Shown here: in pieces, positions 39,281 through 63,753 of the stretch
Numbering within the stretch: the stretch's first letter is position 1
Layout: each line of letters opens with the position of its first letter
NCBI GenBank assembly: GCA_963665275.2
Contig: CAXXIN010000012.1
Span: forward strand, 32,001-96,000
DNA from: Negativicutes bacterium
Lineage (GTDB): Bacteria > Bacillota > Negativicutes > UBA1444
Reading direction: 5' to 3'
DNA length: 64,000 nt
Notes under the pieces: model-generated
What the model was told of the DNA's origin: nothing
Seen by the model: the letters and a program-made list of their open reading frames with translations, nothing else
Databases searched by the model: none
Made by a program: the position numbers and the translations under genes

Positions 39281-39287
39281 AGATACT

Positions 39288-40983: not shown

Positions 40984-40994
40984 CCTTACCTCCT

Positions 40995-42669: not shown

Positions 42670-42711
42670 ACATGCATAGGTGTGGTTGCTCAAGTCGACA
42701 TCATACAACAG

Positions 42712-42751
42712 CAGCAATGAGGCTGGCAGAGAATTCTTCTGCCGGCTTTTT
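42712..42751 (+). promoter_or_regulatory. ANTAR-type hexaloop hairpin overlapping an intrinsic terminator
   Basis: CAGC-AATGAG-GCTG; terminator GGCTGGCAGA-GAATTCT-TCTGCCGGCT-TTTT. Confidence 0.8.
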
Positions 42752-42803
42752 CATTAAGGTGTTTCGCGCAAACATTCCTGGCGATGAAAGAAAGGGGCAC
42801 ACG

Positions 42804-44015: not shown

Positions 44016-44034
44016 CAAGGAGCGAAGGCGATCC

Positions 44035-45255
44035 ATGGATACTAAAATCATTGACGCAGCAGCCAAACTAAAAGAAGAAATGTTCACTTTTGCCCAAAGA
44101 CTGATTCAGACGCCCAGCCTCAGTGGTGAGGAAAAAGCATTGGCCGAATTATGTGAGTCCGAGATGGTCCGCCTCGGCTATGACGAAGTTTTTATCGATG
44201 GTATCGGGAATGTTGTGGGAATCATCCGCGGCTCCGGTGATGGCTGCAACCTTATGTACAACTCCCATATGGATCACGTCGACCCTGGCAATGAAGCGCT
44301 TTGGGACTACCCGCCCTACGGCGCGGTAATGGCTGATGGGTATATTCACGGGCGCGCCGCCAGCGATGTCAAAGGAGGTCTCGCCGCCCAGATTTACGCC
44401 GGAGCCTTGCTGCGCCAGGCTGGAATTCCGCTGCGGGGCGATTACATCGTCACCGGCGTTGTTCAGGAAGAACCGGCGGAAATGCTGGGCATCCAGTACT
44501 TATGCGATAAAACGTTTCCTGCACATGGACTCCGTTTTGATCTGATGATCAGTTCCGAAGCTACCGGTCTGAATTTATTTCTGGGCCATCGCGGTCGTGT
44601 GGAACTGGAAGTCGTGACTGAAGGGCGCACCAGTCATGGTAGCGCTCCCTGGAGGGGCATCAATGCCGTAACTAAAATGCTGCCTGTGCTCGATCAGGTC
44701 AATCGCCTGGCCGAAAGTCTTCCCACTCACCCGATCCTTGGGCAGTCCACCCTCGCATTGACCAATATTACCTGCAGTCCCGGCCGATTGTCGATCATTC
44801 CGGATATTTGCACCGTTTCCCTCGACCGTCGATTGCTGCCGGAAGAAAGCTGCGAATTGGCATTGGCTCAAATCGAGGCCATCTTAACCGATCTCTCGGC
44901 AAAGGATCCCGAATTCAAGGCTCAGGTCCGCATCCGAACGGTTCGTGAAACTTCTTGGACCGGCGTATCGATGGACTGCGAGAAAAAAATGGCAGCCTGG
45001 ATAATCCGTCCCGATCATCCCCTGGTTATCGAAACGGTGAAAGCGCTCAACTCCATCGGCCAGACACCCGATTTCGGCAAATGGGATTTTGGCACCGATG
45101 CCAGCTATGTCACGGGCGTACTCGGCATCCCCACGATTGGCTATTCTCCTATGGAAGAACAGTATGCACATACGCCCCAGGACCGGGTCAGTACAGAAAT
45201 GATGCTCAAAGCTCTGGCAGGCAACGCAGCCATTGCCCGGCGCATCGCCGGATAA
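44035..45255 (+). CDS. M20/ArgE-DapE metallo-amidohydrolase, YgeY-like
   Basis: HMDHV, GRAASDVKGG, QEE, GHRGRVE, HGSAP..GINA, WDFGTD, YAH. Confidence 0.88.
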   Translation: MDTKIIDAAAKLKEEMFTFAQRLIQTPSLSGEEKALAELCESEMVRLGYDEVFIDGIGNVVGIIRGSGDGCNLMYNSHMDHVDPGNEALWDYPPYGAVMADGYIHGRAASDVKGGLAAQIYAGALLRQAGIPLRGDYIVTGVVQEEPAEMLGIQYLCDKTFPAHGLRFDLMISSEATGLNLFLGHRGRVELEVVTEGRTSHGSAPWRGINAVTKMLPVLDQVNRLAESLPTHPILGQSTLALTNITCSPGRLSIIPDICTVSLDRRLLPEESCELALAQIEAILTDLSAKDPEFKAQVRIRTVRETSWTGVSMDCEKKMAAWIIRPDHPLVIETVKALNSIGQTPDFGKWDFGTDASYVTGVLGIPTIGYSPMEEQYAHTPQDRVSTEMMLKALAGNAAIARRIAG

Positions 45256-45289
45256 CCGTCTGAAATTAAAATTACTGGAGGAGATCAAC

Positions 45290-46447
45290 ATGTCCATCGA
45301 TCTGTTTCAATCCCCTGAACGTCTTTTGTTCGGCTGGGGCAGCGTGGAAAAATCCGGGGAGGAAGCGTTGCGTTATGGAACCAAAGCAATGCTTGTCAGC
45401 GGCAAAACTTCTTCCCGCGCCAGCGGAGCGCTTGACGCGGTGTGCGCTTCCCTGAAATCGGCCGGTATCGCCGTGACGTTGTTTTGTGAAGCGGAATCCG
45501 ATCCCAGCGTCCGCACAATCACCGCCGGTACCGCGCTTGCCAGAGAAATCGGCGCCGAGGTGATCATCGCACTCGGCGGTGGCAGTCCTCTTGATGCCGG
45601 CAAAGCCATTGGCCTCATGGCCGCCAATGACGGCAACATCACCAACTATGAAAAAACTGCGCCAACGAAGCCCGGTCTACCGGTCATCGCCATCCCCACG
45701 ACCGCCGGTACCGGCAGTGAAGTGACAAAATTCGTTGTAATTACCGACACCGAACGAAAAGTGAAAATGTTGATCAGCACTCCTTTCCTAATCCCCAGAG
45801 TCGCGTTGCTCGACCCCCAGCTCACGCTGAGCATCCCGTCCGCTTACACAGCCGGACCGGGAATGGACGCACTGACCCATGCCATTGAAGCTTTTCAATC
45901 CAGCCTCGCTTCCCCCACCACCGATGTGTTTGCCCTCTCTGCCATCCGCCTGATCGGAGGCCATCTCGTCAAGGCAACCTTAAACGGCGCCAACATCGAG
46001 GCCCGCACCGCCATGTTGCTCGGTCAGATGCATGCCGGTCTTGCCTTCGGCAATGCTTCGGTAGCTCTCGTCCATGCCATGTCCCGACCGCTCGGCGCGC
46101 ACTTCGGCATTCCTCATGGTCAAGCCAATGCCATTTTGTTGCCTTGGGTCATGAAATACAACAGGCCTGCCTGCCCGGAAAAATTCGTCCGAATTGCCGA
46201 AGCTCTTGGCTGTGAGGTAAAGGGACTGTCGCTAAGAGAATCCAGTCAGCTCGCCGTGGATACCGTACGCGAAATTTATGCCGATACCGGGCTGCCGCTT
46301 ACACTCGCCGAACTCGGCGTTCCGGCAGACGCCTTGCCCCAGCTCGCCAAAGATGCGTCGCAAAGCGGCAGCGTGCTCTTTAATCCCCGCAAACCGACCT
46401 TAAGTGAAATCGAACAACTCTATCATTCATGCCTGAACGGCAAATAA
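45290..46447 (+). CDS. Iron-containing alcohol dehydrogenase (possible sulfoacetaldehyde or malonate-semialdehyde reductase)
   Basis: GGGSPLD, PTTAGTGSE, DALTHAIE, HAMS, PHG. Confidence 0.9.
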   Translation: MSIDLFQSPERLLFGWGSVEKSGEEALRYGTKAMLVSGKTSSRASGALDAVCASLKSAGIAVTLFCEAESDPSVRTITAGTALAREIGAEVIIALGGGSPLDAGKAIGLMAANDGNITNYEKTAPTKPGLPVIAIPTTAGTGSEVTKFVVITDTERKVKMLISTPFLIPRVALLDPQLTLSIPSAYTAGPGMDALTHAIEAFQSSLASPTTDVFALSAIRLIGGHLVKATLNGANIEARTAMLLGQMHAGLAFGNASVALVHAMSRPLGAHFGIPHGQANAILLPWVMKYNRPACPEKFVRIAEALGCEVKGLSLRESSQLAVDTVREIYADTGLPLTLAELGVPADALPQLAKDASQSGSVLFNPRKPTLSEIEQLYHSCLNGK

Positions 46448-46464
46448 GAAGGGAGCGAAGCCGT

Positions 46465-47847
46465 ATGACAACCCCAATCAACGTAGAAGAATTGATTGCC
46501 CAGGAAAAGGAACATCTCTGGCTCCATCTGACCAACCACAAAATGATGGAGACTCAGGAACCTCAAATCATGGTATCAGGCAATGGTTGCAACATCACGG
46601 ACGCCCGGGGCAACGAATACCTTGATATGCTCTCCGGCGGCGTATGGTGCGTCAATGTCGGCTATGGACGCGAATCGATGGTGCAGGCCGCTGCCGACCA
46701 GCTTCGCACCCTTCCCTACTATGCCGGGACAGTGGCTACCCCTCCCTACATCCATCTGGCAACCAAGCTCGCTTCCCTGCTGCCAGCGCTCCCCAAAGTC
46801 TACATTTCAAACAGTGGATCTGAAGCCAATGAAAAAGCGTTCAAAATGTCTCGCCTGTACTTCGGCGTCACCGAAACGCAAAAAGAGAAACATAAAATCA
46901 TTTACCGTGACCGGGATTATCATGGCAGCACCCTGGCGGTCCTCGCCGCCGGCGGACAAAAGGAAAGAAAGGCCGGTTACGGCCCTTATCCGGAAGGGTT
47001 CGTGGAAATCCCCCACGCATGCTGTTATCGCTGTCCGTTCGGCAAGGAATATCCGAACTGCGAGATCGACTGCGCCCGTGCTCTGGAAACAACCATTCTA
47101 AAGGAAGGTCCCGACACCGTGGCGGCGATCATTCTTGAACCAATCACTGCCGGTGGCGGCATCATACCGCCGGTTCCGGAGTATTTCCCGCTCATCCAGT
47201 CTATCTGCCGCAAATACGAGGTGCTCCTCATTATCGACGAAGTAGTCGCCGGGTTCGGGCGGACAGGGAAAATGTTCGGCCATGATCACTACGATGTGCA
47301 ACCTGATATGGTGACTCTCGCCAAAGGCATCGCAAGCTCCTACATGCCGCTCTCGGCTACGCTCGCCACCAAAGCGGTTTTTGACCGATTCCTGACCTCG
47401 CCGACCGATACCTTCGGTTATTTCCGTGACATCAGCACTTACGGCGGCTGCACTGCAGGCTGTAGTGTAGCACTGGAAAACATCCGCATCATCGAAGAAG
47501 AAAAGTTGGTTGAAAACAGCGCCGTGTTGGGCCGCTACCTGCTCGATCAACTGAAGCAGTTCGCCGATCACCCGATGGTTGGGGACATCCGCGGCCTGGG
47601 CCTGTTCGCCGGCATCGAGATCGTCGACGACAAAAAGACCAAAGCACCTTCCGCAGAAGGCACTTTGGCCGGCATCGTGGCTGATGTTAAAAAGCAGGGC
47701 ATTCTGATGGGACGGATGGGACGCAGCGTTCCTGGACTCAACAACGTTCTCACGCTCGCCCCTGCCCTCATCGTCACCAAAGAGCAGATCGACTCAACCG
47801 TCAAAGCGATCGGCGTTGCTCTGGGCAACCTGAAAGCTGCAAAATAG
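46465..47847 (+). CDS. tpa: Class III aminotransferase, taurine:pyruvate aminotransferase-like
   Basis: SGGVWCVNVGYGR, SNSGSEANEKAFK, RDYHG, YFRDISTYGGC, NNVLTLAPALI match the Tpa subfamily as recalled; substrate not proven. Confidence 0.75.
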   Translation: MTTPINVEELIAQEKEHLWLHLTNHKMMETQEPQIMVSGNGCNITDARGNEYLDMLSGGVWCVNVGYGRESMVQAAADQLRTLPYYAGTVATPPYIHLATKLASLLPALPKVYISNSGSEANEKAFKMSRLYFGVTETQKEKHKIIYRDRDYHGSTLAVLAAGGQKERKAGYGPYPEGFVEIPHACCYRCPFGKEYPNCEIDCARALETTILKEGPDTVAAIILEPITAGGGIIPPVPEYFPLIQSICRKYEVLLIIDEVVAGFGRTGKMFGHDHYDVQPDMVTLAKGIASSYMPLSATLATKAVFDRFLTSPTDTFGYFRDISTYGGCTAGCSVALENIRIIEEEKLVENSAVLGRYLLDQLKQFADHPMVGDIRGLGLFAGIEIVDDKKTKAPSAEGTLAGIVADVKKQGILMGRMGRSVPGLNNVLTLAPALIVTKEQIDSTVKAIGVALGNLKAAK

Positions 47848-51389: not shown

Positions 51390-51669
51390 GAAAAAAAAAC
51401 ACCGAAATGTCCGTATTTCATTTCGTGATAATTGATGTTTTTATTAAAAAAATACCTTACTCAAATCCACAATTTTTCTTTGTAAAATTTGACTTTAATG
51501 CGTTTTTTTATTCGCGCCATTATTTATTTTTTCTTGAATTTTCTTTGCGGAAATTTCCTTAATTCAAAAAAAGTTGCCGTATAACCAGCAATCGTTTCTC
51601 CCACGTAACACACCCAGCCATTTTTCACACTTTAACAATATTATCGACGCGCCCGCCTAATCCAGAGCG

Positions 51670-51713
51670 AAAAAATGCCTGGTATGGGTTTTTTCCCTAC
51701 CAGGCATTTTTTT
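51670..51713 (-). terminator. Intrinsic terminator of the urt-amidase-M20 operon
   Basis: AAAAAATGCCTGGTA...TACCAGGCATTTTTT. Confidence 0.82.
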
Positions 51714-51725
51714 GCTCTATTATTT

Positions 51726-53030
51726 TTACTCCAGCTTGAAATCTTCCTGCGGCACTTTCCCCAATTCCAGAAATATCGCCGCATATCCGGCAATCGCTTT
51801 TCCCATGTAATCAGTGCGGACTTTATCAATCGGCCGATGGCAGTAAAACTCCTGCATGGGAGAATAACCGATAGCCGGTTTCTGGTCGCGCCCGCAGATA
51901 ACGGAAAGGTCAGTGCCGAAATCCCAGTAGCCGTATTTGACCGGCTGGTCGACCTGAGTCAGGCCCGACGCTGCCGCCTTGACGAAGGGATGGGACGAGT
52001 CAATCTTCCAGGGCTGCTTCACGTTCGGGATCGTGGCCGATTGGCCGGTATAGGAAGTCCGGGGCACGGCCGCGATCTCCACCTTCGCCCGGAAATCTTT
52101 ATCGCTGGCCGCCAATTCGTCAATAACGCTCTGGATTTGTTTCACGCAATCCTCAGCCGATTCACCCGGAACCATCCGCCGATCATAAGTGATATGGCAA
52201 CGGTCCGGCACGATGCACATCGCCCCCGGCGTACAGCTGATGATCGTCAGGGCGATGCTCGATTTGCCGAGCTGCGGATCCTCAAGCGCGTTCGCCGCCA
52301 CGACCTGTTCCACCCGGTCAATGAAGGCTGTCGCTTTGTTCACTGCATTGACGCCGAGCCACGGCGCGCTGCCGTGCGAGGTCACGCCTTCGATCGTCAC
52401 CAGCAGTTCGACCCGCCCCCGATGCCCCAGATAGAGTTTGAGCGAAGTCGCTTCGCAGGAAACAACGCCGTCATAGTCCAGCCCCCGGCCTGGCAAAGTT
52501 TCATCAATCAGTTTGATCATGCCGAGCTGTTCGGCTGGTTCTTCCAATACGACGCCCGTAAACATGTAATTGCCGTAGAGATCCTGACCCTGCTCCCGCA
52601 GCTTCAGCAGCAAGGCTCCAGCGTAAACCTGACAGGCTCCGCCGCCTTTCACATCGGAGGCGGCCCGGCCATGAATGACTTCAACCTGCTCCGTCCCGGT
52701 GCGGTCCTGATTCTCCATCTCATCGATATCGAGGGCTGCGCCGTAGGGGTCATAACCCAACCATTCGGAGTGATCGCCTGGCGCCACATGATCCAGATGG
52801 GCATTGTACATGATCGTCGGGCCCGGTTGGTTCCCCCGGACAATCCCCACGACACTGCCCCATTCATCCCGGAACACTTCGTCATAGCCAAGCTTCTCCA
52901 TCTCGGCCAGATACAGATCCGCTACGCCCTTTTCCTCACCCGGCAACGCCGGTACCCTGATCAGCCGGCGACAAAACTCCACTGCCGCCGGTTTCAGCTC
53001 GGCGGCAAGTTTATTCAACTCACTCGACAT
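51726..53030 (-). CDS. M20 metallo-amidohydrolase, YgeY-like (paralogue of 44035-45255)
   Basis: HLDHV, GRAASDVKGG, EEPAE, GHRGRVE, HGSAPW.G.NA, WDFGTD, IGYSPM. Confidence 0.88.
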   Translation of the reverse strand: MSSELNKLAAELKPAAVEFCRRLIRVPALPGEEKGVADLYLAEMEKLGYDEVFRDEWGSVVGIVRGNQPGPTIMYNAHLDHVAPGDHSEWLGYDPYGAALDIDEMENQDRTGTEQVEVIHGRAASDVKGGGACQVYAGALLLKLREQGQDLYGNYMFTGVVLEEPAEQLGMIKLIDETLPGRGLDYDGVVSCEATSLKLYLGHRGRVELLVTIEGVTSHGSAPWLGVNAVNKATAFIDRVEQVVAANALEDPQLGKSSIALTIISCTPGAMCIVPDRCHITYDRRMVPGESAEDCVKQIQSVIDELAASDKDFRAKVEIAAVPRTSYTGQSATIPNVKQPWKIDSSHPFVKAAASGLTQVDQPVKYGYWDFGTDLSVICGRDQKPAIGYSPMQEFYCHRPIDKVRTDYMGKAIAGYAAIFLELGKVPQEDFKLE

Positions 53031-53043
53031 GGTTATCCCTCCG

Positions 53044-53247
53044 TTACTTGGTCGGCGGTTTCAGTGAAAATACCGATGCGGGCGCCAGCTCCGCCGGAAA
53101 CTCTTGCGCCGCCGCGCGCACCGCCGCCAATAATCCCGCCACTTCTTTCGCATATTGGGGAAGGTGTGCGTCAATCGCAGGGTTCACCGTTCGACCGGAT
53201 AGCTCGACTGTCATGCTGCGCAGTGTACTTACTTCCACAATCCACAC
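53044..53247 (-). CDS. Small protein, possible AtzG/HpxX/GatC-like amidase partner
   Basis: About 65 aa filling the amidase-M20 gap; ends PAELAPASVF; start codon uncertain. Confidence 0.6.
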   Translation of the reverse strand: MWIVEVSTLRSMTVELSGRTVNPAIDAHLPQYAKEVAGLLAAVRAAAQEFPAELAPASVFSLKPPTK

Positions 53248-54653
53248 TTCCTCTCGCTGATTTCCGGGTGCGCCTGTTCATAGGCATAAGCCACTTGAAA
53301 CACTTGATTTTCCGCAAACGGTTTCCCCTGAATCTGAAACCCGATCGGCAAGTCCCCGGCAGCAAATCCGCACGGCAGCGACAGCACCGGGTGCCCGTTG
53401 AAATCGCCAAGGGAGGTCAAAAACATCAGTACCGCATTCACACGGGGATCTACCGCGTCGTTGCCGAACATCACCGTTTTTTCACCGATGGGGAAAGCCG
53501 GCATAATGACGGTGGGCGACAAGAACACATCAATCTCCTGATAAACCTCCGCCCAGATCTGTCGGTCCTTGTTGCGCAGCCGTTGCGCGTTGACATAAGC
53601 CGACGCTGGCAGGTACTGGCCCTTCTCGAGTCGATATCGGATACTGGGGCCGTATTTCTCGCCGCAGTTCTCCAAATTCTGTTCGTGGTAAGCATAGGCT
53701 TCCGCCATCGTGAGAACGCTGCCGATATTGAACGCATCCCTGTTTGGATAAGACAGTTCCTTCAAAACAGCGCCATTAGCCTCGAACCATTGGAGTACCT
53801 GTAAAAAAGCCTGCTCGACTTCCGGTTGCAGCAAACCCTCATAATAACGCGGGCAAATTCCAACTCGCAGACCTTTGACGCCGGGATTATTTTGATCCAG
53901 CCCAACCGTATAATCCTGGGCGGCTACATTAGCAGATCCCGCATCGATTTCATCATAGCCAGCCATGACATTCAGTACGGCAGCGGCATCCCATACGGAC
54001 TGCGCCAGCGGTCCGGCGTGGTCCATCGACCAGCTCAGGGGAATGATCCCCCGCTTGCTCACCCGGCCATACGTCGGTTTGATGCCGACCACGCCGCAGA
54101 AGGAAGCAGGAATCCTTATCGACCCGCCGGTATCCGTTCCCAGCGAAAAAACCGAACTGGCGGCAGCCACCGATGCCGCCGATCCCCCGCTGGAGCCGCC
54201 GGTTACCATGCGGGAATCCCACGGGTTGCGACAGGGACCGAAGTGGTCATTCTCACTGGTCGTGCCATAGGCGAATTCATGCAGGTTGTTTTTGCCGACC
54301 AGAATGGCCCCGGCTTCTTCCATCCCTTCAATCACGGCAGCATTCGAATCCGGTATGTTGTCGGCCAGAATCGCCGATCCCGCCGTTGTCCGCACGCCCC
54401 GAGTCATATACAGATCTTTGGCTGAGTACGGGATTCCATGTAGCGGGCCGCGGTAACGCCCCTGCAGGATTTCTTTTTCCGCCTGCGCCGCTTTTTGCAG
54501 CGCCGGCTCAGCTGTCACCGTAATATAAGCGTTAAGTACGGGTTCAGTTGCTTCGATGCGTTGCAGACATTCCCGGGTCAGCTCCACCGGCGATATTGTT
54601 TTTGCTTGCAGCAGCGGCGCCAATTCCCGGATAGATTTTTGCATTAGCGACAT
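53229..54653 (-). CDS. Amidase-signature family enzyme (GatA/AtzE-like)
   Basis: GPLHGIP...KD, GGSSGGS, GTDTGGSIRIPAS. Confidence 0.93.
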   Translation of the reverse strand: MSLMQKSIRELAPLLQAKTISPVELTRECLQRIEATEPVLNAYITVTAEPALQKAAQAEKEILQGRYRGPLHGIPYSAKDLYMTRGVRTTAGSAILADNIPDSNAAVIEGMEEAGAILVGKNNLHEFAYGTTSENDHFGPCRNPWDSRMVTGGSSGGSAASVAAASSVFSLGTDTGGSIRIPASFCGVVGIKPTYGRVSKRGIIPLSWSMDHAGPLAQSVWDAAAVLNVMAGYDEIDAGSANVAAQDYTVGLDQNNPGVKGLRVGICPRYYEGLLQPEVEQAFLQVLQWFEANGAVLKELSYPNRDAFNIGSVLTMAEAYAYHEQNLENCGEKYGPSIRYRLEKGQYLPASAYVNAQRLRNKDRQIWAEVYQEIDVFLSPTVIMPAFPIGEKTVMFGNDAVDPRVNAVLMFLTSLGDFNGHPVLSLPCGFAAGDLPIGFQIQGKPFAENQVFQVAYAYEQAHPEISERKCGLWK

Positions 54654-54693
54654 GTCATCGGCTCCTTCCACGGTATTGATCCATTCGACTTAA

Positions 54694-55389
54694 TTATACC
54701 GTAAGATACCGATGAATGACTTCATCCGACAATTCTTCCGTTGCTCCGCAAGCAACAATTTCGCCTTTTTGTATCACAATGAAGCGATCCGCCAGTTTCT
54801 TGGCAAACTTCAGATTTTGTTCCACGATCACGATCGGAATCTGCATCGCCTTGTGGATGCGTTTCAAAATATTGCCGATCTCCGCCACCACATTCGGTTG
54901 AATTCCTTCGGTCGGTTCATCCAAAAGCAATGTTTTCGGATGGCTCATCAGCGCGCGGGCGATGGCCAGCTGTTGCTGCTGCCCGCCGGAGAGCACGCCG
55001 CCCTTGCGGTGCAGATGTTCAGGCAGGATCGGAAAATAGTCGAATACTTCCTCCATCCGTTCTTTGACCTCGCTCGTGTGCGCCAGGGCGCCAAGTTCCA
55101 GATTTTCTTTGACAGTCAGATTGGGAATGATCTCTCGTCCCTGCGGCACATAGGCAATCCCGCTGCAGGCCCGTTCGTAGGCTTTCATCTTCGTCAGGTT
55201 GACACTGCCGAGACTGATAGACCCCGTCTGCATCGGCAACAGTCCAATCATGCTTTTGAGCAGAGTCGTCTTGCCAACGCCATTGCGGCCGAGAATCGCC
55301 AGTTTCTCCGTGGAATCGACAGCGAAAGAGACTTTGTTCACGATACGGCTTTTGCCGTAACTGACCGAAACCGCGTTCACTTCCAGCAT
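54694..55389 (-). CDS. urtE: Urea/amide ABC ATPase UrtE
   Basis: GRNGVGKTT, YVPQGREI, LSGGQQQQLAI, DEPTEGIQP. Confidence 0.92.
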   Translation of the reverse strand: MLEVNAVSVSYGKSRIVNKVSFAVDSTEKLAILGRNGVGKTTLLKSMIGLLPMQTGSISLGSVNLTKMKAYERACSGIAYVPQGREIIPNLTVKENLELGALAHTSEVKERMEEVFDYFPILPEHLHRKGGVLSGGQQQQLAIARALMSHPKTLLLDEPTEGIQPNVVAEIGNILKRIHKAMQIPIVIVEQNLKFAKKLADRFIVIQKGEIVACGATEELSDEVIHRYLTV

Positions 55390-55390
55390 A

Positions 55391-56143
55391 TTAAGCCACT
55401 TCCTCGTCATCATCTTTCAGATACACTTGCACCACTTTGGGGTTGCGCTTGACCTCGGCAAAGGTTCCCTCCGCCAATACTTTTCCCTGATGCAGCACGG
55501 TCACGGTTTCCGCGATCTGCTCGACAAAATCGATATCATGTTCCACCACGATGACGGTCTTGTCCTTCATCATAGTCTTGATCATTTCGCCGGTTTTATA
55601 GGTTTCATCAGCGGTCATTCCTGCTGTGGGCTCGTCCAGTGTGATCAGTTGGGGCTTCTGGGCAATGACCATGCCCATCTCGAGCCACTGTCGCTCGCCG
55701 TGTGACAGGGAGGTGGAAATCACATCCCGTTTGCCGTATAAATTGATCTGTTCCAGAATTGTTTTGATTTCATCGGCAATCGATTTGTTCTTGCGGTAGA
55801 GAAAGGTCTTCAGGACACTACTGTGCCCTGCCAGCGCCACTTCAACGTTTTCATACACACTGAGAAAATCAAACAGATTGGGCCCCTGAAATTTGCGTCC
55901 CACTTTATATTTCCCGGCAATTTCATGCGGGCTGCAACCAGTGATATCCGCTCCGCCGAGAAATACTTTACCGCTCGTCGGTGCTGTTTTGCCTGTGATC
56001 ATATCGATAATGGTAGTTTTTCCTGCGCCGTTTGGCCCAATGACTACCCGGGTTTCGCCTTTTTCCACTGATAGGGAAACCCGATCCACCGCCAGAAATC
56101 CGCTGAAACTCACGCTCACATCCCGCAATTCCAAGAAAGCCAT
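55391..56143 (-). CDS. urtD: Urea/amide ABC ATPase UrtD
   Basis: GPNGAGKTT, GRKFQ, LSHGERQWLE. Confidence 0.92.
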   Translation of the reverse strand: MAFLELRDVSVSFSGFLAVDRVSLSVEKGETRVVIGPNGAGKTTIIDMITGKTAPTSGKVFLGGADITGCSPHEIAGKYKVGRKFQGPNLFDFLSVYENVEVALAGHSSVLKTFLYRKNKSIADEIKTILEQINLYGKRDVISTSLSHGERQWLEMGMVIAQKPQLITLDEPTAGMTADETYKTGEMIKTMMKDKTVIVVEHDIDFVEQIAETVTVLHQGKVLAEGTFAEVKRNPKVVQVYLKDDDEEVA

Positions 56144-56146
56144 TCC

Positions 56147-57259
56147 TTACACCTTTCCCTTCGCCGTGGCAAAATCGCTTTCCCGCAATCCCACAGAATC
56201 GTCGGTTTGAACCAGTCCCATTTGCCGGTCAATCTTCCGGTTATACTGCCAATCCAGTAAGGTTCCGACCAGCCCTTTGGGGAAGAACATCACGACCGCC
56301 AGCATCGCGGCGCCGAGCAACAACAGCCAGACATTTTCAAATTGCTCGGACAACAGGCTTTCCATCCAGGTGATCAGAAAGGCGCCGACCATGGCGCCGG
56401 TCAGATTGCCCCGGCCGCCAACCGCCAGCCACACCAGTACCGACGTGGAAAAAGCCACGCCGATGTTGCCGGGGGAAATGAAGGAATGGATCGGAATGTA
56501 TAACATGCCGGATAAGCCGGCGATCATGCCCGAAATCACAAAAATCGTCAATTTGAATGCCGCCGGATTGAATCCGAGAAACTGTAGCCGGCTCTCATTA
56601 TCGCGCACCGAACGCAGAATCATGCCGAACCGGCTGTGCGTCAACCAGCGGCAGAAGAGATACACCAACACTCCGACAGCCAGCATCAGATAATAGTGCG
56701 CGGTGATCGACAACGGCTCCGAACCCAGGGTGATCGGCGGCAGTCCGCTGATCCCGTTCGCGCCGCCGGTATATTTCTGCTGATTGTTAAAGAACATTTC
56801 GATCAAAGAGGCCAGGGACAGGGTGATGATGTTAAAGAACACCCCCTTGACCTTGCTGGTGAAAATGAAATAACCGAGCAGGCCTGCCACTACGCCAGGA
56901 ACGACCATTCCCAGCAACACCGCCAACGGGGTGTTTTGCAGTATCTGCATGAACCAGGGAACTTCCGTCACGCCAAATCCGGCCATGAACGCAGGCACTC
57001 CGTCGCGGGCGGCATAAGACAATGCCAGCACATATCCGCCCAAGCCGAAGAACATCGCCTGCCCCAGATTCATCAAGCCCGCACTGCCCCAGAGAATATC
57101 GAGAGACAAAGCAAAGATGATGTACACGATGCATTTGCTCATCATCTCCACCCGGAACAGCGACCCGACCAGTGGAAACCCGATCAGAAAGGCAAACAAC
57201 AGCACGTCGATATATTTGTCCCAGCCAATATTTTTCATTTCCTTCATCATGACGCTCAC
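56147..57259 (-). CDS. urtC: Urea/amide ABC permease UrtC
   Basis: LDILWG, GQAMFFGLGGY, RDNESR, AVGGRG. Confidence 0.92.
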   Translation of the reverse strand: MSVMMKEMKNIGWDKYIDVLLFAFLIGFPLVGSLFRVEMMSKCIVYIIFALSLDILWGSAGLMNLGQAMFFGLGGYVLALSYAARDGVPAFMAGFGVTEVPWFMQILQNTPLAVLLGMVVPGVVAGLLGYFIFTSKVKGVFFNIITLSLASLIEMFFNNQQKYTGGANGISGLPPITLGSEPLSITAHYYLMLAVGVLVYLFCRWLTHSRFGMILRSVRDNESRLQFLGFNPAAFKLTIFVISGMIAGLSGMLYIPIHSFISPGNIGVAFSTSVLVWLAVGGRGNLTGAMVGAFLITWMESLLSEQFENVWLLLLGAAMLAVVMFFPKGLVGTLLDWQYNRKIDRQMGLVQTDDSVGLRESDFATAKGKV

Positions 57260-58116
57260 CTCTTCTCGCTTGTAAACAAGCCTTCCGGCTTGAACCGGAT
57301 CAGTACGATGATAATGAGGAACACCAGGACTTTGGCCGTGATCTCACTGATGTAACCGGCCATCACCGTGACGGATTCGCTGATAACCACCGAGCTGGCG
57401 GCCGTGCCGGCGATGGAGGCGAAGCCTCCCAGCACAACGGTCAGAAATCCATCCACAATGTAATAGGAACCCATCGAAGGCATGACGCTCTTTACCGGCG
57501 CGATCAGCGCTCCCGCCAGGCCCGCCAGGCCGGAACCGCAGGCGAAAGTCAGGGTATCAATCCGTGCGGTATTCACGCCCAGGCATTGCGCCATGCTGCG
57601 ATTCTTCGTCACTGCCCGCAGCTGCATGCCAAAACCAGTCTTGTAAAAGAGCGCCAGCGTGGCCGCGAGGATTCCCAACGCAACCATGATCAGAAAAATG
57701 TTGTAGTGCGGTATCACGATGCCTTGCAATGAAAAATGCCCTTCCATCGGCAGACCAACGAACTTGTCTTCAGGACCGAAGGCCATACGCACCAATTGCT
57801 GCAAAATGATGGAAAGGGCAAAGGTCGCCAGCAGCGTTTCCGCAACTTTTCCATACAAACGCTTGATTAACGTCACTTCAATCACAATACCCATCAGAGC
57901 AGTGACCAGAAACGCCAGCAGCATCGACACAGCAAACGGCAAGTGAAAAACGGTGGTCGCGAAATAGGTAACATACGCACCAATCATGATGAACTCTCCG
58001 TGCGCCATATTGACTACATCCATCAAGCCGAAAATGATCACCAAACCCAATGCCGTGATGAACAACATGGCCGATACGCTCAGTCCGTTGATGCTCTGTG
58101 AAAGGAGAAGTTCCAT
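57256..58116 (-). CDS. urtB: Urea/amide ABC permease UrtB
   Basis: NMAHGEFIMIGAY, ETLLAT. Confidence 0.92.
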   Translation of the reverse strand: MELLLSQSINGLSVSAMLFITALGLVIIFGLMDVVNMAHGEFIMIGAYVTYFATTVFHLPFAVSMLLAFLVTALMGIVIEVTLIKRLYGKVAETLLATFALSIILQQLVRMAFGPEDKFVGLPMEGHFSLQGIVIPHYNIFLIMVALGILAATLALFYKTGFGMQLRAVTKNRSMAQCLGVNTARIDTLTFACGSGLAGLAGALIAPVKSVMPSMGSYYIVDGFLTVVLGGFASIAGTAASSVVISESVTVMAGYISEITAKVLVFLIIIVLIRFKPEGLFTSEKR

Positions 58117-58264
58117 GCACCGATCACTCCCCTACCCTTGATTCATTGTGGCTAAAAGCATTAATGCGCCTGCCAAAAGCTATCATTAAACTTTTGGCAA
58201 GCGCACTTCGTCGTGTCAGATTATCCTATTCGTTTGTAAAAAACCGCTAATTGATTCGAAGAGC

Positions 58265-59461
58265 TTACAGTTCCGGTTTCACCCATTCTTTGGAGCTGTA
58301 TACGATTTCAAACGTTCCGTCGGGTTTGACCTTGCCGATACGGGACTGTAGCCAAGTATGGTTATTGGTCGGATCAACCTTGATTTTCCCTTGCGGCGAT
58401 TCGATTTCCAACCCCTTGAAAGCGCTGAGCAGAGTCGGTCCGTCATAGGCAGTCGCTTTTTCCAATGCTTTGGCCAGCAAATAGACACCATGGTAAGCGC
58501 CTTCAGCCAGATTGGTTACGGTGGTGTTGTCCTGGAATTTACTGTTGTAAGCAGCGACGAACTTCTTACTCGCAGCGGTTTCATCTACCTGGAAGTAATC
58601 GAAAGAGCTGTAGTGTCCGGCTGCGGCTGCCGCGCCGATCCCCTTGACCGTCGCTTCATGGGTCGCGATCGAGCAGATTGGGATATCTTTGGCGGAAAGT
58701 CCGTACTGTTGATATTGTTTGTAGAAAGGAACCACGCTGTCACCGGCGACCGCCGAGAAGATCACATCCGGTTTAGCCTGCTTGATTTTATTGATCAGGG
58801 AGGAGAACTCCGTATGACCCAGCGGTACGAATTCTTCGCCGACGATTTCACCACCGGCTTTCTCCAGCATCGCTTTGGCCTTCTTGACGCTCGTTACGCC
58901 AAACACATAGTCTGAACCGACGAAGAAGACTTTCTTGCCGAGGTTCTTCACGATCCAGGGGATGAAATCAGCGCTCTGCTGGCTGGGAACCGAGTTGGTA
59001 TAGATGACATTGGGGGAAGGTTTTTCACCTTCATAATAAGTATTGTAGACCAACACCGACTTGTTGCGCTCCACATCCGGGATAACGGCCAGGCGGGAGG
59101 CGGAAGAATTGGTGCCGACGGTGGCGACGACTTTGTCCTGCAGAATCAGCTTTTTGATTTTCTCTGTGGCCTTCGCCGGATCAGAAGCGTAATCTTCATA
59201 AACAGGAATCAGTTTTTTGCCTTTGATTCCGCCAGCGGCGTTGATCTCATCGATCGCCATTTTCGCGGCGTTAAGCATCGGCTTTTCCGAAATAGAGAAA
59301 GGCCCGGTGGTCGAGTAAAGCACGCCGATTTTGATTCCATCAGCCGCAGCGGCGTCTGTCCCGCCTTTGGCCGGGGTCGTTTCCGACTTGCCGCAGCCGG
59401 CGAGCACCGTTATTGCCATTGCCGCCACCAAAAGTAATATCAGCCATTTCTTTGTCGCCAT
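58265..59461 (-). CDS. urtA: Urea/amide ABC substrate-binding lipoprotein (UrtA/AmiC family)
   Basis: Lipobox LAGC, S.TG..SISE, SASR, YEGE, GSDYVF; binding specificity uncertain. Confidence 0.88.
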   Translation of the reverse strand: MATKKWLILLLVAAMAITVLAGCGKSETTPAKGGTDAAAADGIKIGVLYSTTGPFSISEKPMLNAAKMAIDEINAAGGIKGKKLIPVYEDYASDPAKATEKIKKLILQDKVVATVGTNSSASRLAVIPDVERNKSVLVYNTYYEGEKPSPNVIYTNSVPSQQSADFIPWIVKNLGKKVFFVGSDYVFGVTSVKKAKAMLEKAGGEIVGEEFVPLGHTEFSSLINKIKQAKPDVIFSAVAGDSVVPFYKQYQQYGLSAKDIPICSIATHEATVKGIGAAAAAGHYSSFDYFQVDETAASKKFVAAYNSKFQDNTTVTNLAEGAYHGVYLLAKALEKATAYDGPTLLSAFKGLEIESPQGKIKVDPTNNHTWLQSRIGKVKPDGTFEIVYSSKEWVKPEL

Positions 59462-59492
59462 CGATTCTTCCTCCTAACGCTATTGCACCTTT

Positions 59493-59538
59493 AAAAACAA
59501 AACAGACTTTGTTCCTGCGAACAAAGCCTCATTGCTTT
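59493..59538 (-). promoter_or_regulatory. ANTAR-type hexaloop hairpin overlapping an intrinsic terminator
   Basis: Minus strand AAAGC-AATGAG-GCTTT; terminator GGCTTTGTTC-GCAG-GAACAAAGTC-TGTTTTGTTTTT. Confidence 0.8.
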
Positions 59539-59788
59539 TACCTGTGTCCATTATATCGGGGCGATTGCCCTGTTGAGATAGATTATAGCATCGTAAAATT
59601 TCAAACACAATAGATGCAGCAAACAAACAACCCTGTGCGGACGCACAATCGATCATAAAACAGATACTATCCGAAAGTATACTATTTATCTTTTCCCAGC
59701 CAGTTTCAGACTCCCGCAATATGGTCATTAATTCCACAAATTTCATCCACAACGATGATTGCCGTATCGGAGTTGTTTTGAATTCGCA

Positions 59789-60381
59789 TCATGGGTGATT
59801 GCTCCTTGCTTCCTCGACGGCCATCATCAGAAAGCCGCCAAAAGCAGCATTATCAACGCGTAGCAGTTCATTTACTTCCTGTTTCATCAGCATGATCTGC
59901 TCACGGCATGCCTGCTAAAATGCGCGATGATTCCATTCACGGTTGTCGGCTTGATGAATGCCTCGATACTGGGCCGGTAATAGATCGGGTAACCCGTCAA
60001 CAGCGGCCATTTCGCAACTTTATATTCCTGCAGCAGGCCCGTCGTCAACCCAAACCCCTTTGCCTGGTCTCCATGCAGAAATCCTTTCAGCCCGTAGGCC
60101 AAGTGTTCTTTTTCATCGGCACTCATGGAATGCACCGCATCACGAAATTTTGGCTTTTCAAAAATCGAGACTAAAGATGACTGGCTGACAATTTTGATCA
60201 TAGATTCGGCAATGGAGGTAGCACTGTGGAATTGTTCCGGCGCGAAGCTTTCCTGCGCCATTTTTATCATCTTCGGCACCTTGTGCTTCTTCACGATTTC
60301 AAGCATGTCCGGGTGGGAAAACCCGCCTGGATACTGAGCCAGAAAGCGACCTTCGGCTTCTCTAAGTTTCGTGCTGTTCAT
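59789..60381 (-). pseudogene. Hypothetical protein gene with frame break near 59915
   Basis: ORF stops at 59887, but a protein-like tail (REQIMLMKQEV...DNAAFGGFLMM) continues in another frame to TGA at 59789. Confidence 0.6.
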
Positions 60382-60450: not shown

Positions 60451-60924
60451 TTATTCTGACGAATCGACAGACTCTGCGATCAGTTCTTCTTCACGCTCAT
60501 TCAACGATGAATATATTTTGAACCGTTGTTTAGTCTGTCGATGCGTGGCGTATCCGATAAAGACAGAGTCGTTGCCATCGTCTTTGCGACTACTCTTTTT
60601 TAGGCTGCCAATGTTGGACAGCTTAAGAATAGTCTTATTGAGTTGTTGAATCCGCTCCTCAAGTCGCTTGGCTGCAGATTCCAGCGTGAAACCTTGATCC
60701 AAAAAGTCTTTCAGTAATACAATTTTCTCGATAGTTGGGTAGTCGTATCTCCGATTGGTGCTGTCGTTGTCGCCTATCGCGCGGATGATCCCTTTTGTTT
60801 CCCAGTACCGAAGCTGCCTAGCCGATACGCCGGTGATTTCGGAAGTTTCACCAATCCCGACAATGATTCGTGACAGGATCGGTGAATCAAGTATCGTTGA
60901 AAGTGATGTTGATTTTTTTGCCAC
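60451..60924 (-). CDS. MerR-family (GlnR/TnrA-like HTH) transcriptional regulator
   Basis: IGETSEITGVSARQLRYWE.KG, RRY. Confidence 0.9.
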   Translation of the reverse strand: MAKKSTSLSTILDSPILSRIIVGIGETSEITGVSARQLRYWETKGIIRAIGDNDSTNRRYDYPTIEKIVLLKDFLDQGFTLESAAKRLEERIQQLNKTILKLSNIGSLKKSSRKDDGNDSVFIGYATHRQTKQRFKIYSSLNEREEELIAESVDSSE

Positions 60925-61055: not shown

Positions 61056-61472
61056 TTGGATATTCGATTTAAAAAGGGATGGGACAAACTCCGGGAAATT
61101 GATGGCGAAGCAGGAGAAGCTGTGGTGCAATCACTACACGACATTGCTCCGGATTTGGGGAAGTATATCATTGAGTTCGCGTTCGGCGACATTTACTCAC
61201 GACCCGGGTTGAATTTGCAGCACAGACAATTGGTAACGATTGCGTCTTTGACTACACAGGGCAACTGTGAACCGCAACTTGAGGTTCATATCAATGCAGC
61301 GTTAAATGTAGGCTTGTCGCCCAATCAAATTATTGAAGCGATCCTGCACTGTAGCCCGTACATCGGATTCCCACGTGTAATAAATGCCGTAAAAGTGGGA
61401 CAAAAAGTTTTTGACAAAAGAGAAGTACAGCCTGTTTGGGAGGAGGGAGCGGACAATGCGTCTTCGGACTAG
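61056..61472 (+). CDS. Carboxymuconolactone decarboxylase family protein
   Basis: EFAFGDIYSRPGL, QL.VHI.AALN.G, PYIGFP. Confidence 0.9.
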   Translation: MDIRFKKGWDKLREIDGEAGEAVVQSLHDIAPDLGKYIIEFAFGDIYSRPGLNLQHRQLVTIASLTTQGNCEPQLEVHINAALNVGLSPNQIIEAILHCSPYIGFPRVINAVKVGQKVFDKREVQPVWEEGADNASSD

Positions 61473-62325
61473 GTCAACCCAATGGGTGGTTGGAAGCCTG
61501 TTGTTGTTTTTGGCACTACTGTCAGGATGCCAGTCTGCTACTAGTCAAATGACGGGGAAAAGGCCGGATTCACAAGCGGCAATGACAGCAAGTAAACCGA
61601 AAGGAACCATGATGGCAACAATAACAGCAAAAACAGGTTTTAATGCCCCAACGGCGATAACGTTTGATCCCGCAGGGAATATGTATGTTGCAAACTGGAA
61701 TGACGGCACGGTATCGAGAGTGGACAGCACCGACAATAGGAAAACCTTCGCTTCAATCGACGGATCACCTGCAGGACTTGCTTTTGACAAGCAGGGAAAC
61801 CTATATGTGTCGGATTATAGAGAAAATATTTATCGCGTCAGTCCCGATGGGGCTACAACTATTTTTGCAACAGGATTGCATACTCCGACAGGGATCGCCT
61901 TCAACAAAAGTGGAGAGTTGCTTGTGACAAACCGGAGTAGTAATGAACTGGTAAAAGTATCGCCGACAGGAAATGTTTCCGTTTTAGAACGGGGATTGCG
62001 AACTCCAGTGGGTGTCGTGGAGCATCCTGACGGCACGCTTTATGTTTCGAATTACGGCGGCGGTATTACCAAAATTTCACCTGGTGGTTCTGCAACGACG
62101 ATAGGAGCTAATTTTGTTACACCAGGATGCGGGATTGTAATTTTCCATGGCGATGTTCTGGTTGTCGATTATGGACAAGGAACGATTAAAAATCTAGGAC
62201 CGGATGGGACACAATTGAGTGTGGTTGCACAAAATCTCAAACAGCCGGTTGCGCTGGGAGTACATCCACAGGGCAATTTATATGTTGGCACCTGGGGTGA
62301 TGGCTCGGTTTATTTATTAGATTAA
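61456..62325 (+). CDS. NHL/SMP-30-like beta-propeller lipoprotein
   Basis: Lipobox LSGC; six ~40-aa repeats P.G(I/L)AFD..GNLYV. Confidence 0.85.
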   Translation: MRLRTRSTQWVVGSLLLFLALLSGCQSATSQMTGKRPDSQAAMTASKPKGTMMATITAKTGFNAPTAITFDPAGNMYVANWNDGTVSRVDSTDNRKTFASIDGSPAGLAFDKQGNLYVSDYRENIYRVSPDGATTIFATGLHTPTGIAFNKSGELLVTNRSSNELVKVSPTGNVSVLERGLRTPVGVVEHPDGTLYVSNYGGGITKISPGGSATTIGANFVTPGCGIVIFHGDVLVVDYGQGTIKNLGPDGTQLSVVAQNLKQPVALGVHPQGNLYVGTWGDGSVYLLD

Positions 62326-62450: not shown

Positions 62451-63482
62451 TTATATCGTATTCTTTTTCGCGGCAGCCTCTCGTACCGATTCCCTATCGC
62501 ACCGGATAAAAGCCATCAGTTCTTTGGCCGTCTGCGAATACAGTTTCGTTTCCTCATAATCAGGTTCTCCGCCGGACAAATGCTGCATCAATACTCCGTC
62601 CGTCCCAAACCAGCGGGGTGCAAGTCCTCCGAAGAAAAAGCCGTTATGCCGCAGCAATTCGACCGCTTCGCCAATTGCTGGGCAAGCTGCGTTCAGCACT
62701 ACCTGCAAACTGACCACCTGCCGCCTGTCGGCCTCAGTCAGCAGTTCCTCCACCACCGTCGCCCAATCGCCGCCGATCGAGCTCACCGCTACTTTCCAGG
62801 TTTTCGCAAAGTCATAATACTTATCCTCTCGGACTGTATCGCCTGCCGCCGGCAAGGCTGCCGACGACGTCAGAAAAGTCCGGGGTCGTAGCGGCGCGGC
62901 CAGTCGTCGCAAATACTCATCATACCTGGCAGGCAAATACTCTGGCGCCACAGGGTCAGAAAGTTCCGAAAAATTCAGTACGCAGGATACTCGTGCCATG
63001 CCTGCCTTATTGCTTTTTCCGTCTTTAAAACTGGCGCCGTCCAATTGATCCAGCTCCAGCGCACAGTCGACAAATCCTGACTTTATTGCGCTGACTTGGG
63101 TGAAATAATGACAGCAGACCGCTTCGCTGAAAATCCCGTCATTGCCAGACATTCTACACATTGTCGGATCAAAATAAAAGCACGCCAATTCCAATGACAC
63201 AGCAGACTGGGCATAAGCCGGATCAACCAACATATTTCCGGCTTCCCACAGCCGGAAGTTAGGGGCTGACTTGAAGAAAGAAATGTAACCTGCGGGATGC
63301 CCCTCGGCAGTCAACGCCAAAGCGGCCGTCAACTTTTCAGCTTGAATATCCCGCCACAACACGTCAGGTTGATACACGTCCTTGACGGGAAAGTCCTCAC
63401 CATACAGCGCACGAAAAACAGCGCCCACATGGTGTGCATTGTTTTTCCCTACCGCAACAATTTGAAACATTTTTTCCAACAT
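62451..63482 (-). CDS. Hypothetical protein, possibly GNAT-like acyltransferase
   Basis: 343-aa ORF behind AAGGGG; E.G.MLVDPAY resembles a degenerate GNAT motif; follows the ACP gene. Confidence 0.6.
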   Translation of the reverse strand: MLEKMFQIVAVGKNNAHHVGAVFRALYGEDFPVKDVYQPDVLWRDIQAEKLTAALALTAEGHPAGYISFFKSAPNFRLWEAGNMLVDPAYAQSAVSLELACFYFDPTMCRMSGNDGIFSEAVCCHYFTQVSAIKSGFVDCALELDQLDGASFKDGKSNKAGMARVSCVLNFSELSDPVAPEYLPARYDEYLRRLAAPLRPRTFLTSSAALPAAGDTVREDKYYDFAKTWKVAVSSIGGDWATVVEELLTEADRRQVVSLQVVLNAACPAIGEAVELLRHNGFFFGGLAPRWFGTDGVLMQHLSGGEPDYEETKLYSQTAKELMAFIRCDRESVREAAAKKNTI

Positions 63483-63510
63483 TGGTCTTACCCCTTTTCT
63501 TCCGCGACTA

Positions 63511-63753
63511 TTATTTTGCGATTCGTTTATCCAGATAGGCCACTGCATATGCGATAGTCGTCATTTCTTTTACATCTTCCTGTGGAATCGTTATCGCAAA
63601 GGTTTCTTCCGCCATTACCAGAAGTTCGGTGTAATCAAGCGAATCCAGTTTGAGGTTCTCCACCAGCAAAGCTTCCGGTTTCAAATCCGCCTCTGTGATA
63701 TTTTTCTTTTTTAGTTTCAAAATGATTGCCTTTACTTTTTCCAATGTTGTCAT
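63511..63753 (-). CDS. Acyl carrier protein
   Basis: 80 aa, L.LDSLD phosphopantetheine site, EETFAITIP. Confidence 0.9.
   Translation of the reverse strand: MTTLEKVKAIILKLKKKNITEADLKPEALLVENLKLDSLDYTELLVMAEETFAITIPQEDVKEMTTIAYAVAYLDKRIAK

Follow-up and report, generated by a model that had tools for sequence, protein, structure and literature searches.

As a minus-strand operon of the urea-transporter type (urtABCDE) in a Negativicutes bacterium is followed by genes for an amidase, a small protein and an M20 metallohydrolase, and not by urease genes, we were interested which compound its importer delivers and what becomes of it in the cell. The operon occupies 51726-59538 of a stretch of 64,000 nucleotides (positions 32,001 to 96,000 of contig CAXXIN010000012.1, assembly GCA_963665275.2), which is called the window throughout. 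A reading made from the letters of the sequence only had proposed hydrolytic removal of nitrogen from an imported amide or ureide, and this core idea turned out to be largely right, with the restriction that the amidase is co-conserved with the transporter only in part. From the pocket of the binding protein, its position in a separate clade and the hydrolase genes around it we consider nitrogen scavenging from a compound with a terminal carbamoyl or amide group (R-CO-NH2) other than urea, most likely a mono-substituted urea (R'-NH-CO-NH2), to be slightly more probable than all else taken together.

A urea-type importer operon without urease

According to the list of open reading frames (ORFs) of the window, eight ORFs lie in one direction and are tightly packed, overlapping or separated by at most 23 nt, with the exception of a 148-nt gap between urtA and urtB. 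The operon and its terminator are composed of:

58265-59461, minus: lipoprotein substrate-binding protein (SBP) of the UrtA/AmiC family, Peripla_BP_5/UrtA-like by Pfam and NCBIfam, lipobox LAGC
57256-58116, minus: UrtB-type permease (TIGR03409, 303.3 over a cut-off of 250.3)
56147-57259, minus: UrtC-type permease (TIGR03408, 303.3 over 296.2)
55391-56143, minus: UrtD-type ATPase (TIGR03411, 312.8 over 304.1)
54694-55413, minus: UrtE-type ATPase (TIGR03410, 307.1 over 285.8)
53229-54671, minus: amidase-signature enzyme, AtzE/GatA-like (NF006631, 379.9, below 461), with K85, S160 and S184 intact
53044-53247, minus: 67-residue ORF, candidate GatC/AtzG-like small subunit by profile comparison, overlapping the end of the amidase gene by 19 nt
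51726-53030, minus: M20a, YgeY-like M20 metallohydrolase (NF009555, 291, below 321), metal ligands intact
51665-51706, minus: operon terminator of A-tract, hairpin and U-tract (fold -35.9 kcal/mol, z -8.7)

Gene content was thus given correctly by the sequence-only reading, and its view of one minus-strand operon ending in a terminator is borne out by the ORF layout and the strong hairpin 3' of the M20 gene. The stated absence of urease and urea carboxylase was also confirmed by profile searches of the whole genome to which the window belongs (G000, 92.6% complete): no urease alpha subunit passed (best match 25.8 bits against a cut-off of 680) and neither did a urea carboxylase, for which the top match was the pyruvate carboxylase adjoining the operon. 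Complete tier-1 variant operons with amidase, small ORF and M20a were found in the window and in genomes G083, G048, G014, G101, G071, G212 and G160, where some gaps may be broken stretches of sequence; G077 and G058 hold fragments. As the cluster is kept in eight distinct genomes of two families, a chance juxtaposition is excluded.

The binding protein and its pocket

UrtB, UrtC, UrtD and UrtE all lie above their NCBIfam equivalog cut-offs and the five components of an ATP-binding cassette (ABC) importer are complete, whereas the SBP stays below both UrtA cut-offs (TIGR03407, 359.3 against 492.75; TIGR03669, 233.5 against 494.8). In UrtA of P. marinus, urea is contacted by W120, S122, Y141, Q144, E146, Y190, F192, N246 and S274, and mutants of S122, Q144, Y190, N246 and W120 lose urea binding; mutations at W120, Q144 and N246 are described as abolishing or strongly reducing it and those at S274 as reducing it (PMC10392092). 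The corresponding residues of the window protein were read by counting along its printed alignment to the urea-bound P. marinus chain 8hic. In this and in the class-wide alignments four of the eight urea contacts are replaced, namely W120N, Q144Y, N246A and S274A in P. marinus numbering (N118, Y142, A239 and A266 of the window protein), whereas S122, Y141, E146 and Y190 (S120, Y139, E144 and Y185), and also F192, are kept. The closest solved structure, 8tg1, has all urea residues. Where the window protein has its four replacements, AmiC, the fifth-best PDB match, aligns with Y, P, V and T. The lost residues hold the 'first' urea nitrogen or buttress N246, and the kept ones bind the carbonyl oxygen and the second nitrogen; read most simply, the pocket would still grip a -CO-NH2 head and leave room on the other side of the carbonyl. 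By these alignments the SBP is a non-canonical UrtA and probably not a urea binder, and its ligand class we infer.

A search of 401 genomes of the class gave 32 SBP sequences, which fall into two kinds without intermediate. Fifteen of them, 61-100% identical to the window protein (one partial, two duplicates of others), carry N-S-Y-Y/F-E-Y-F-A-A/S, and the remaining 17, at 41-47% identity, the full urea set W-S-Y-Q-E-Y-F-N-S. When the query and its 120 best hits from a collection of 5.8 billion proteins were inspected, the variant set was present in 110 of 121, the urea set in none, and an AmiC-like pattern, Y..P/L/Y..V..T/I/V (Y/L..V), in a separate minority of 11. FastTree analysis of 152 sequences placed the urea type in one clade (support 1.0) and the variant type in another with 125 members, including one near-variant (support 0.68). 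No conserved basic residue was gained in the variant clade and three were lost (K124L, R313T and K371L, window numbering), and one acidic residue, M146E, was gained. Database names for its members are 'urea transport system substrate-binding protein', 'branched-chain amino acid transport...', 'Aliphatic amidase expression-regulating protein' and 'transporter substrate-binding domain-containing protein'. Among the database proteins are two that their sources assign to Sporomusa sp. KB1 and Sporomusa silvacetica DSM 10669.

Compared with UrtABCDE (TIGR03407-03411; 8HIC), the window system has the same five-gene architecture, permeases and ATPases that pass, the SBP fold PF13433 and the kept residues S122, Y141, E146, Y190 and F192, but differs in its sub-threshold SBP with W120, Q144, N246 and S274 replaced, in the separate clade, and in an SBP gene that adjoins hydrolases with no urease or urea carboxylase. 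It is therefore not a plain urea system, as the sequence-only reading had held; a urea-specific binder with a urease elsewhere in the genome, the finding named there as speaking against its proposal, is not what was observed.

Gene neighbourhoods of the variant transporter

In four of four genomes checked (G073, G264, G160 and G212), canonical urtABCDE precedes ureC by 0.7-0.8 kb and shares its strand. Among these, G160 and G212 have the variant operon with amidase, small ORF and M20 in addition to the canonical Urt beside urease; the variant only, and no urease match, was found in G000 and G398. Throughout the examined genomes the variant clade adjoins amidase, CN-hydrolase or M20 genes, not urease, with partners that vary by lineage. 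An amidase-signature enzyme and a YgeY-type M20 are the partners in the genus of the window and in G212 and G160. The order in G264 is urtBCDE, a Nit2-like CN-hydrolase gene and the variant urtA (urtA'), and that in G398, G263 and locus L125 is urtBCDE, an AllC/hydantase-type M20 (TIGR01879, 275 over 204), CN-hydrolase and urtA', followed in G398 and L125 by genes for PucR, a transaminase and an iron-containing alcohol dehydrogenase (Fe-ADH). In tier-2 operons the CN-hydrolase gene is thus situated between urtE (or the M20 gene) and urtA', inside the transporter operon.

Nine metagenome loci, 52-56% identical and several of them near-identical to one another, were fetched by a pattern that itself includes the variant motif. 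A PucR gene is present upstream in seven of the nine and an AllC-type M20 in all six with readable downstream sequence; the AllC-type carbamoylase assignment of the M20 partners comes from model names. One locus (L132) has an Amidohydro_3 gene after the M20 together with a transaminase/Fe-ADH pair, and another (L131) adjoins amtB-glnB. In both a Cytidylate_kin2 (PF13189) gene lies inside the variant operon (L131:9078-9827, L132:9144-9773).

The amidase and the 67-residue ORF

The Ser-cisSer-Lys triad of the amidase (K85, S160, S184) is invariant in 24 sequences. Its best models are AtzE families, yet TIGR02715 (366.3 against 425.75) is missed as is NF006631, and in a PDB search GatA (277 bits) scored above AtzE (6c62, 229 bits). 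A housekeeping GatA was considered and ruled out, as the true gatA (643 bits) is on contig 7 and the operon amidase is a paralogue. Amidases with 40-48% identity occur in Chloroflexi, Rokubacteria, Alphaproteobacteria and others, where a small ORF lies upstream; in the window the small ORF lies downstream of its amidase, which is the reversed order.

An adjacent 67-residue ORF is conserved in all relatives. It represents a narrow family (24 matches at E<=0.001, 17 of them small proteins, among 1.84 billion representatives) with conserved ends, M..NTLR.ITTE..GR at the N-terminus and L.PAPVF at the C-terminus. Direct Pfam, NCBIfam and PDB searches with it gave no match, and Pfam matched none of 21 family members. 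A profile of 19 of the upstream small ORFs led in a PDB profile search to GatC of 3h0l (E 3.8e-4), and two of the 19 match AtzG-like and two GatC in Pfam. Full-length hhalign comparison of the window family with the profile of upstream ORFs rose from 32% with 10 sequences to 85% (E 6e-6) with 21, and both families have a C-terminal motif in common (EPAxVF / LxPAPVF). The small ORF is accordingly described here as a candidate remote GatC/AtzG-like partner of the amidase.

AtzG, a subunit derived from GatC, takes no part in catalysis but is needed for AtzE to be soluble, and AtzE deamidates 1-carboxybiuret (PMC6219798); by analogy, the small ORF may likewise keep the window amidase soluble. Like AtzE-AtzG of Pseudomonas sp. 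ADP and the proteobacterial atzG-atzE-atzH genes treated in that work, the window has a GatA-derived amidase with a candidate GatC-like partner of about 60-70 residues. Unlike them, its amidase is below both AtzE cut-offs with GatA chains scoring higher, its small gene is downstream and not upstream, its host is an anaerobic Negativicute, and atzD, atzH and atzF are absent from the eight ORFs of the operon, atzD and atzH not having been searched for genome-wide.

M20a and its paralogues

YgeY is the best model for M20a, again below threshold in TIGR03526 (244.7 against 321.5) as in NF009555. H78, D80, D126, E163, E164, E193 and H398 are invariant in the alignment, and we take them from the M20 motifs to be the metal and catalytic ligands. 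M20a is 32% identical to the canonical YgeY of the genome (650 bits, on another contig) and 50% to a second YgeY-like M20 in the window. G000 has five YgeY-like M20 paralogues in all (C16:318827-320014, C12:141452-142600, C3:93715-94884 and the two of the window), which suggests a broad repertoire of ureido or N-acyl substrates. At about residues 100-118, M20a has an insertion of 14 residues (DIDEMENQDRTG...) relative to canonical YgeY, which is common to its orthologues and to the extra M20 of G212 and is absent from the second M20 of the window.

YgeY of the reductive uric-acid (2,8-dioxopurine) pathway removes the ureido group from a ureido-diaminopropionate (PMC12507026; bioRxiv 2025.04.24.650524). 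M20a shares with it the best model of the same M20 subfamily and differs by its score below the cut-off, the 14-residue insertion and the lack of ssnA, hyuA, ygeW and ygeX beside it.

Co-occurrence and the linked PucR operon

An amidase orthologue was detected in 14 of the 401 class genomes and a tier-1 variant SBP in 10, with nine holding both; only the SBP is present in G058, an 84% complete genome in short contigs. M20a is present in 8/8 genomes with readable sequence downstream of the tier-1 variant urt genes (urt'), so that urt' and M20a always occur together. The amidase and small ORF stand alone in five of the 14 amidase genomes, where they occupy the same site of the chromosome with pyc or TsaA-like genes as neighbours. 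Four such amidase-only loci are readable (L012, L013, L014 and L016), and these have no urt' upstream, no M20a downstream and no PucR/M20/Fe-ADH/transaminase operon beyond pyc. From these loci it follows that the amidase pair is the constant part and that the transporter, M20a and the PucR set are present or absent as a group. A lack of co-conservation between the hydrolase genes and urt had been named as evidence against the proposed route; with respect to the M20 the genes are co-conserved, with respect to the amidase and small ORF only partially. Of 20 genomes searched in the other family (f25), two gave an amidase, and both of these also have urt'. Between the families, identity is 82% for the SBP, 75% for M20a, 62% for the amidase and 45-47% for the small ORF.

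The operon at 51726-59538 is real, and the system extends further than the sequence-only reading had drawn it, to a second operon at 42672-47847 on the plus strand:

42672-44015, plus: PucR-type regulator, in the linked operon 42672-47847
about 44041-45255, plus: second YgeY-like M20 (M20b; 359, above the family cut-off of 321)
45233-46447, plus: Fe-ADH, with methanol dehydrogenase, 1,3-propanediol oxidoreductase and lactaldehyde reductase as the closest solved proteins
46429-47847, plus: class-III omega-aminotransferase, with polyamine, putrescine and gamma-aminobutyrate transaminases among its relatives

This set is tied to the variant transporter in four different arrangements. In the window and G048 it converges with the transporter operon across pyc; in G014 and G071 it is directly convergent and has no M20; in G212 and G160 twelve co-directional genes read pucR, Fe-ADH, transaminase, M20, urtA'BCDE, amidase, small ORF and M20a; and in G398/L125 and L132 it is joined to a transporter with different hydrolases. 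A comparable logic is found in reductive pyrimidine degradation, where PydC, PydD and PydE are ureidohydrolase, beta-alanine transaminase and malonic semialdehyde reductase (PMC7332683). M20, class-III aminotransferase and Fe-ADH would correspond to this sequence of ureidohydrolase, omega-transaminase and aldehyde reductase, a comparison by logic and not by enzyme identity; unlike the Pyd system, the window cluster is without PydA and PydB and has an importer in their place.

Further genes of the window comprise a group on the minus strand at 38378-41049 that encodes a polyhydroxyalkanoate-depolymerase-like esterase, a protein with a TonB C-terminal domain and a TolQ-like protein. Two minus-strand ORFs of 164 residues (59887-60381) and 365 residues (62451-63548) gave no Pfam match; between them are a MerR-type regulator (60451-60924) and an NHL-repeat protein (61411-62325).

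The leader and its terminator hairpin

Upstream of urtA and in the urtA-urtB gap, four elements were recognized:

59634-59647, minus: perfect palindrome TGTGCG-N2-CGCACA upstream of the promoter, candidate operator
59586-59620, minus: promoter-like region with an ATTGTG...-35-like element and extended -10 TGCTATAAT, read from the sequence
59504-59538, minus: terminator hairpin and U-tract between promoter and start codon (leader fold z -4.0)
58163-58207, minus: 19-bp hairpin with a weak T tail in the urtA-urtB gap, from the hairpin scan

TGCTATAATC is invariant across a leader alignment of eight rows, representing six distinct genomes of the genus; a simple promoter scan did not pick up the extended -10 region. 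The terminator hairpin consists of an 11-bp stem plus U-tract (59529-59504), and compensatory changes of its stem among these relatives (GTTC..GAAC versus GCTC..GAGC) indicate that it is real. Just 5' of it, AAGC-AAUGAG-GCUU is conserved and may form an alternative small hairpin.

The leader had been called ANTAR-type in the sequence-only reading. ANTAR sites consist of two tandem short hairpins with hexaloops (A at position 1, G at position 4), the second of which overlaps the terminator. Only AAGC-AAUGAG-GCUU fits such an A..G hexaloop by this consensus and the tandem pair cannot be drawn: in the leader alignment a second, upstream hairpin of this type is not conserved, has other loops and is absent in G048. 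Rfam gave nothing relevant for the leader at the gathering threshold or at E<=10, and the sole ANTAR protein of G000 is unlinked to the operon: it is a PdtaR-like response regulator encoded on contig 19, where a PdtaS-like kinase is its neighbour. The ANTAR assignment is therefore not supported, and we regard the leader as one with an attenuator. The operons of G212 and G160 are without such a leader, urtA' coming directly after another gene.

The palindrome is conserved in the aligned leaders of the genus-g1 relatives and has a single zero-mismatch site in the whole G000 genome, which is its one match in the window; no copy precedes the PucR operon in the window, and no regulator could be assigned to it. 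Apart from the leader itself, a genome-wide scan for the motif AAGCRATGAGGCTT matched a single inverted repeat, at 99949-100002 of contig 7, in which two opposed copies of AAGCAATGACGCTT (differing from the leader motif by one mismatch) form a 14-bp stem. The repeat is near two amidohydrolase-like genes with weak urease-alpha matches, which was judged a coincidence. A regulon sharing the palindrome or AAGCRATGAGGCTT was considered and rejected, as the palindrome is unique at zero mismatches and the contig 7 repeat was judged unrelated. The hairpin between urtA and urtB is likely a partial terminator or mRNA stabiliser and may give an excess of binding-protein mRNA.

Proposed pathway and alternative explanations

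In the pathway that we favour, the Urt-derived ABC importer would deliver the compound, with the SBP holding the carbonyl oxygen and one NH2 via S120, Y139, E144 and Y185; W120N, Q144Y, N246A and S274A would remove packing on the other nitrogen and so create space that a substituent could fill. Two cytoplasmic enzymes would then free ammonia, and also CO2 in the case of a ureido group: the Ser-cisSer-Lys amidase of the GatA/AtzE lineage, probably kept soluble by the GatC/AtzG-like 67-residue subunit, and the YgeY-like dinuclear-metal hydrolase M20a. The leftover amine would probably pass to the PucR-controlled omega-transaminase and Fe-ADH, with the second YgeY-like hydrolase, and end as an alcohol or hydroxy-acid. 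Import would thus come first, then liberation of NH3 (and CO2) through the amidase complex, M20a or both, then transamination and finally reduction. The amidase and the M20 may work one after the other, side by side on different substrates, or without connection to each other, and a plain amide is a possible ligand. The partner hydrolase families all have characterised ureido-removing members: YgeY and UacY act on a terminal ureido group (PMC12507026; bioRxiv 2025.04.24.650524), and AguY of the amidase-signature family replaces the CN-hydrolase AguB in ureido-group hydrolysis (PMC12283126). Combined with the altered pocket, these precedents point to a mono-substituted urea as the ligand class that needs the fewest assumptions. 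Oxamate, malonamate, allophanate and biuret were also considered and are conceivable ligands, for which nothing specific spoke in support; the clade has gained no conserved basic residue.

Several observations weigh against this pathway. The amidase and small ORF occur without urt', M20a and PucR set in G036 (100% complete), G065, G089, G107 and G095, and may have a role of their own and be merely co-transcribed here. Metagenome relatives of the transporter carry the M20 without an adjacent amidase found with these queries, from which it follows that two hydrolytic steps are not a constant of the system; the strictly two-step route of the sequence-only reading is thus not supported, or unproven. 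As several loci are near-duplicates or close kin, the counts overstate independence. The pocket argument is drawn from sequence alignment, and the link of the small ORF to GatC/AtzG is transitive (0/21 direct Pfam matches and no direct PDB match). The absence of a gained basic residue speaks weakly against anionic ureido acids, which are otherwise the most attractive candidates.

One alternative is a mosaic origin, in which amidase and small subunit are an older resident pair with an unrelated substrate, the transporter, M20 and PucR set form an island inserted around them, and only the M20 acts on the import. The occurrence of the pair at the same site in those five genomes, the joint presence or absence of urt' and M20a, and the far stronger divergence of amidase (62%) and small ORF (45-47%) between families than of SBP (82%) and M20a (75%) agree with such an origin. 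It has to be set against G212 and G160, which belong to a different family, have the pair at the same place between urtE and M20a, and are the only two of 20 genomes of that family with the amidase, both having urt'; moreover, the CN-hydrolase within tier-2 transporter operons suggests that a second hydrolase is wanted. We consider a mosaic unlikely. Uptake of short-chain aliphatic amides (formamide, acetamide, propionamide), hydrolysed by the amidase alone while the M20 and the transaminase operon serve other ends, appears about equally unlikely, although the UrtA/AmiC family includes amide binders, AmiC ranks high among the PDB matches, and the urea-nitrogen binders Q144 and N246 are replaced by non-bonding residues, as in AmiC (P, V). 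The AmiC-like pattern is the separate minority (11/121) and unlike the N..Y/F..A..A/S set, none of the partner hydrolases is of AmiE, AmiF or FmdA type, and the M20, which this explanation leaves aside, co-varies with the transporter (8/8) and is the only adjacent hydrolase found in the metagenome relatives with our queries. Formamide uptake has been proposed for Urt-type transporters beside formamidase or acetamidase genes (PMC13209695). The AmiC and FmdDEF systems (1PEA; PMC13209695) resemble the window in SBP family, link to an amide hydrolase and use as nitrogen source; they differ in the pocket (Y/P/V/T in AmiC, N/Y/A/A in the window SBP), in hydrolases of other families and in the adjacent AmiR, which the window lacks. 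AmiC is also not known to have a lipoprotein signal peptide, whereas the window SBP has the lipobox LAGC.

Ordinary urea uptake, with a nickel-free route in which the amidase serves as urea amidohydrolase or with a urease on unassembled DNA, is very improbable. UrtB to UrtE pass the urea-transporter equivalog cut-offs and the genome is 92.6% complete, so that a urease could be missing from the assembly; however, the changed W120, Q144, N246 and S274 all matter for urea binding in mutants (PMC10392092), in genomes with urease a canonical Urt adjoins the urease genes and the variant operon is a further, separate system, and G398 has the variant and no urease at 99% completeness.

What the variant transporter may mean

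Three features seem to be new: a pocket signature that splits a large clade from urea and amide binders, the consistent pairing of this clade with ureidohydrolase-type enzymes and the PucR/transaminase/Fe-ADH set in anaerobes, and the highly diverged AtzG-like partner in reversed order. In the literature covered, which includes few subscription journals, no title or abstract describes the pocket variant or the operon. The signature provides a simple sequence test that separates the clade from urea transporters; given the routine labels, metagenome surveys would count its genes as urea uptake. For the AtzE/AtzG-like pair there would be a natural context unrelated to xenobiotics, a matter on which PMC6219798 gives no answer.

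Tentatively, and with rather less than even confidence, we propose that the N-Y/F-A-A/S clade is a third ligand class of UrtA/AmiC proteins, a dedicated importer of ureides (N-substituted ureas) that feeds nickel-free and ATP-free ureidohydrolases, with pyrimidine- or purine-derived beta-ureidopropionate, ureido-diaminopropionates, oxalurate or N-carbamoyl amines as candidates. Should a ureide prove to be the ligand, the transporter would represent a bacterial ABC importer of ureides and would tie the anaerobic pathways for purines and pyrimidines, which were solved recently, to cross-feeding: anaerobes in soil, in wastewater and in the gut would live in part on the half-degraded nucleobases of other microbes and dispose of the carbon skeleton by transaminase and Fe-ADH.

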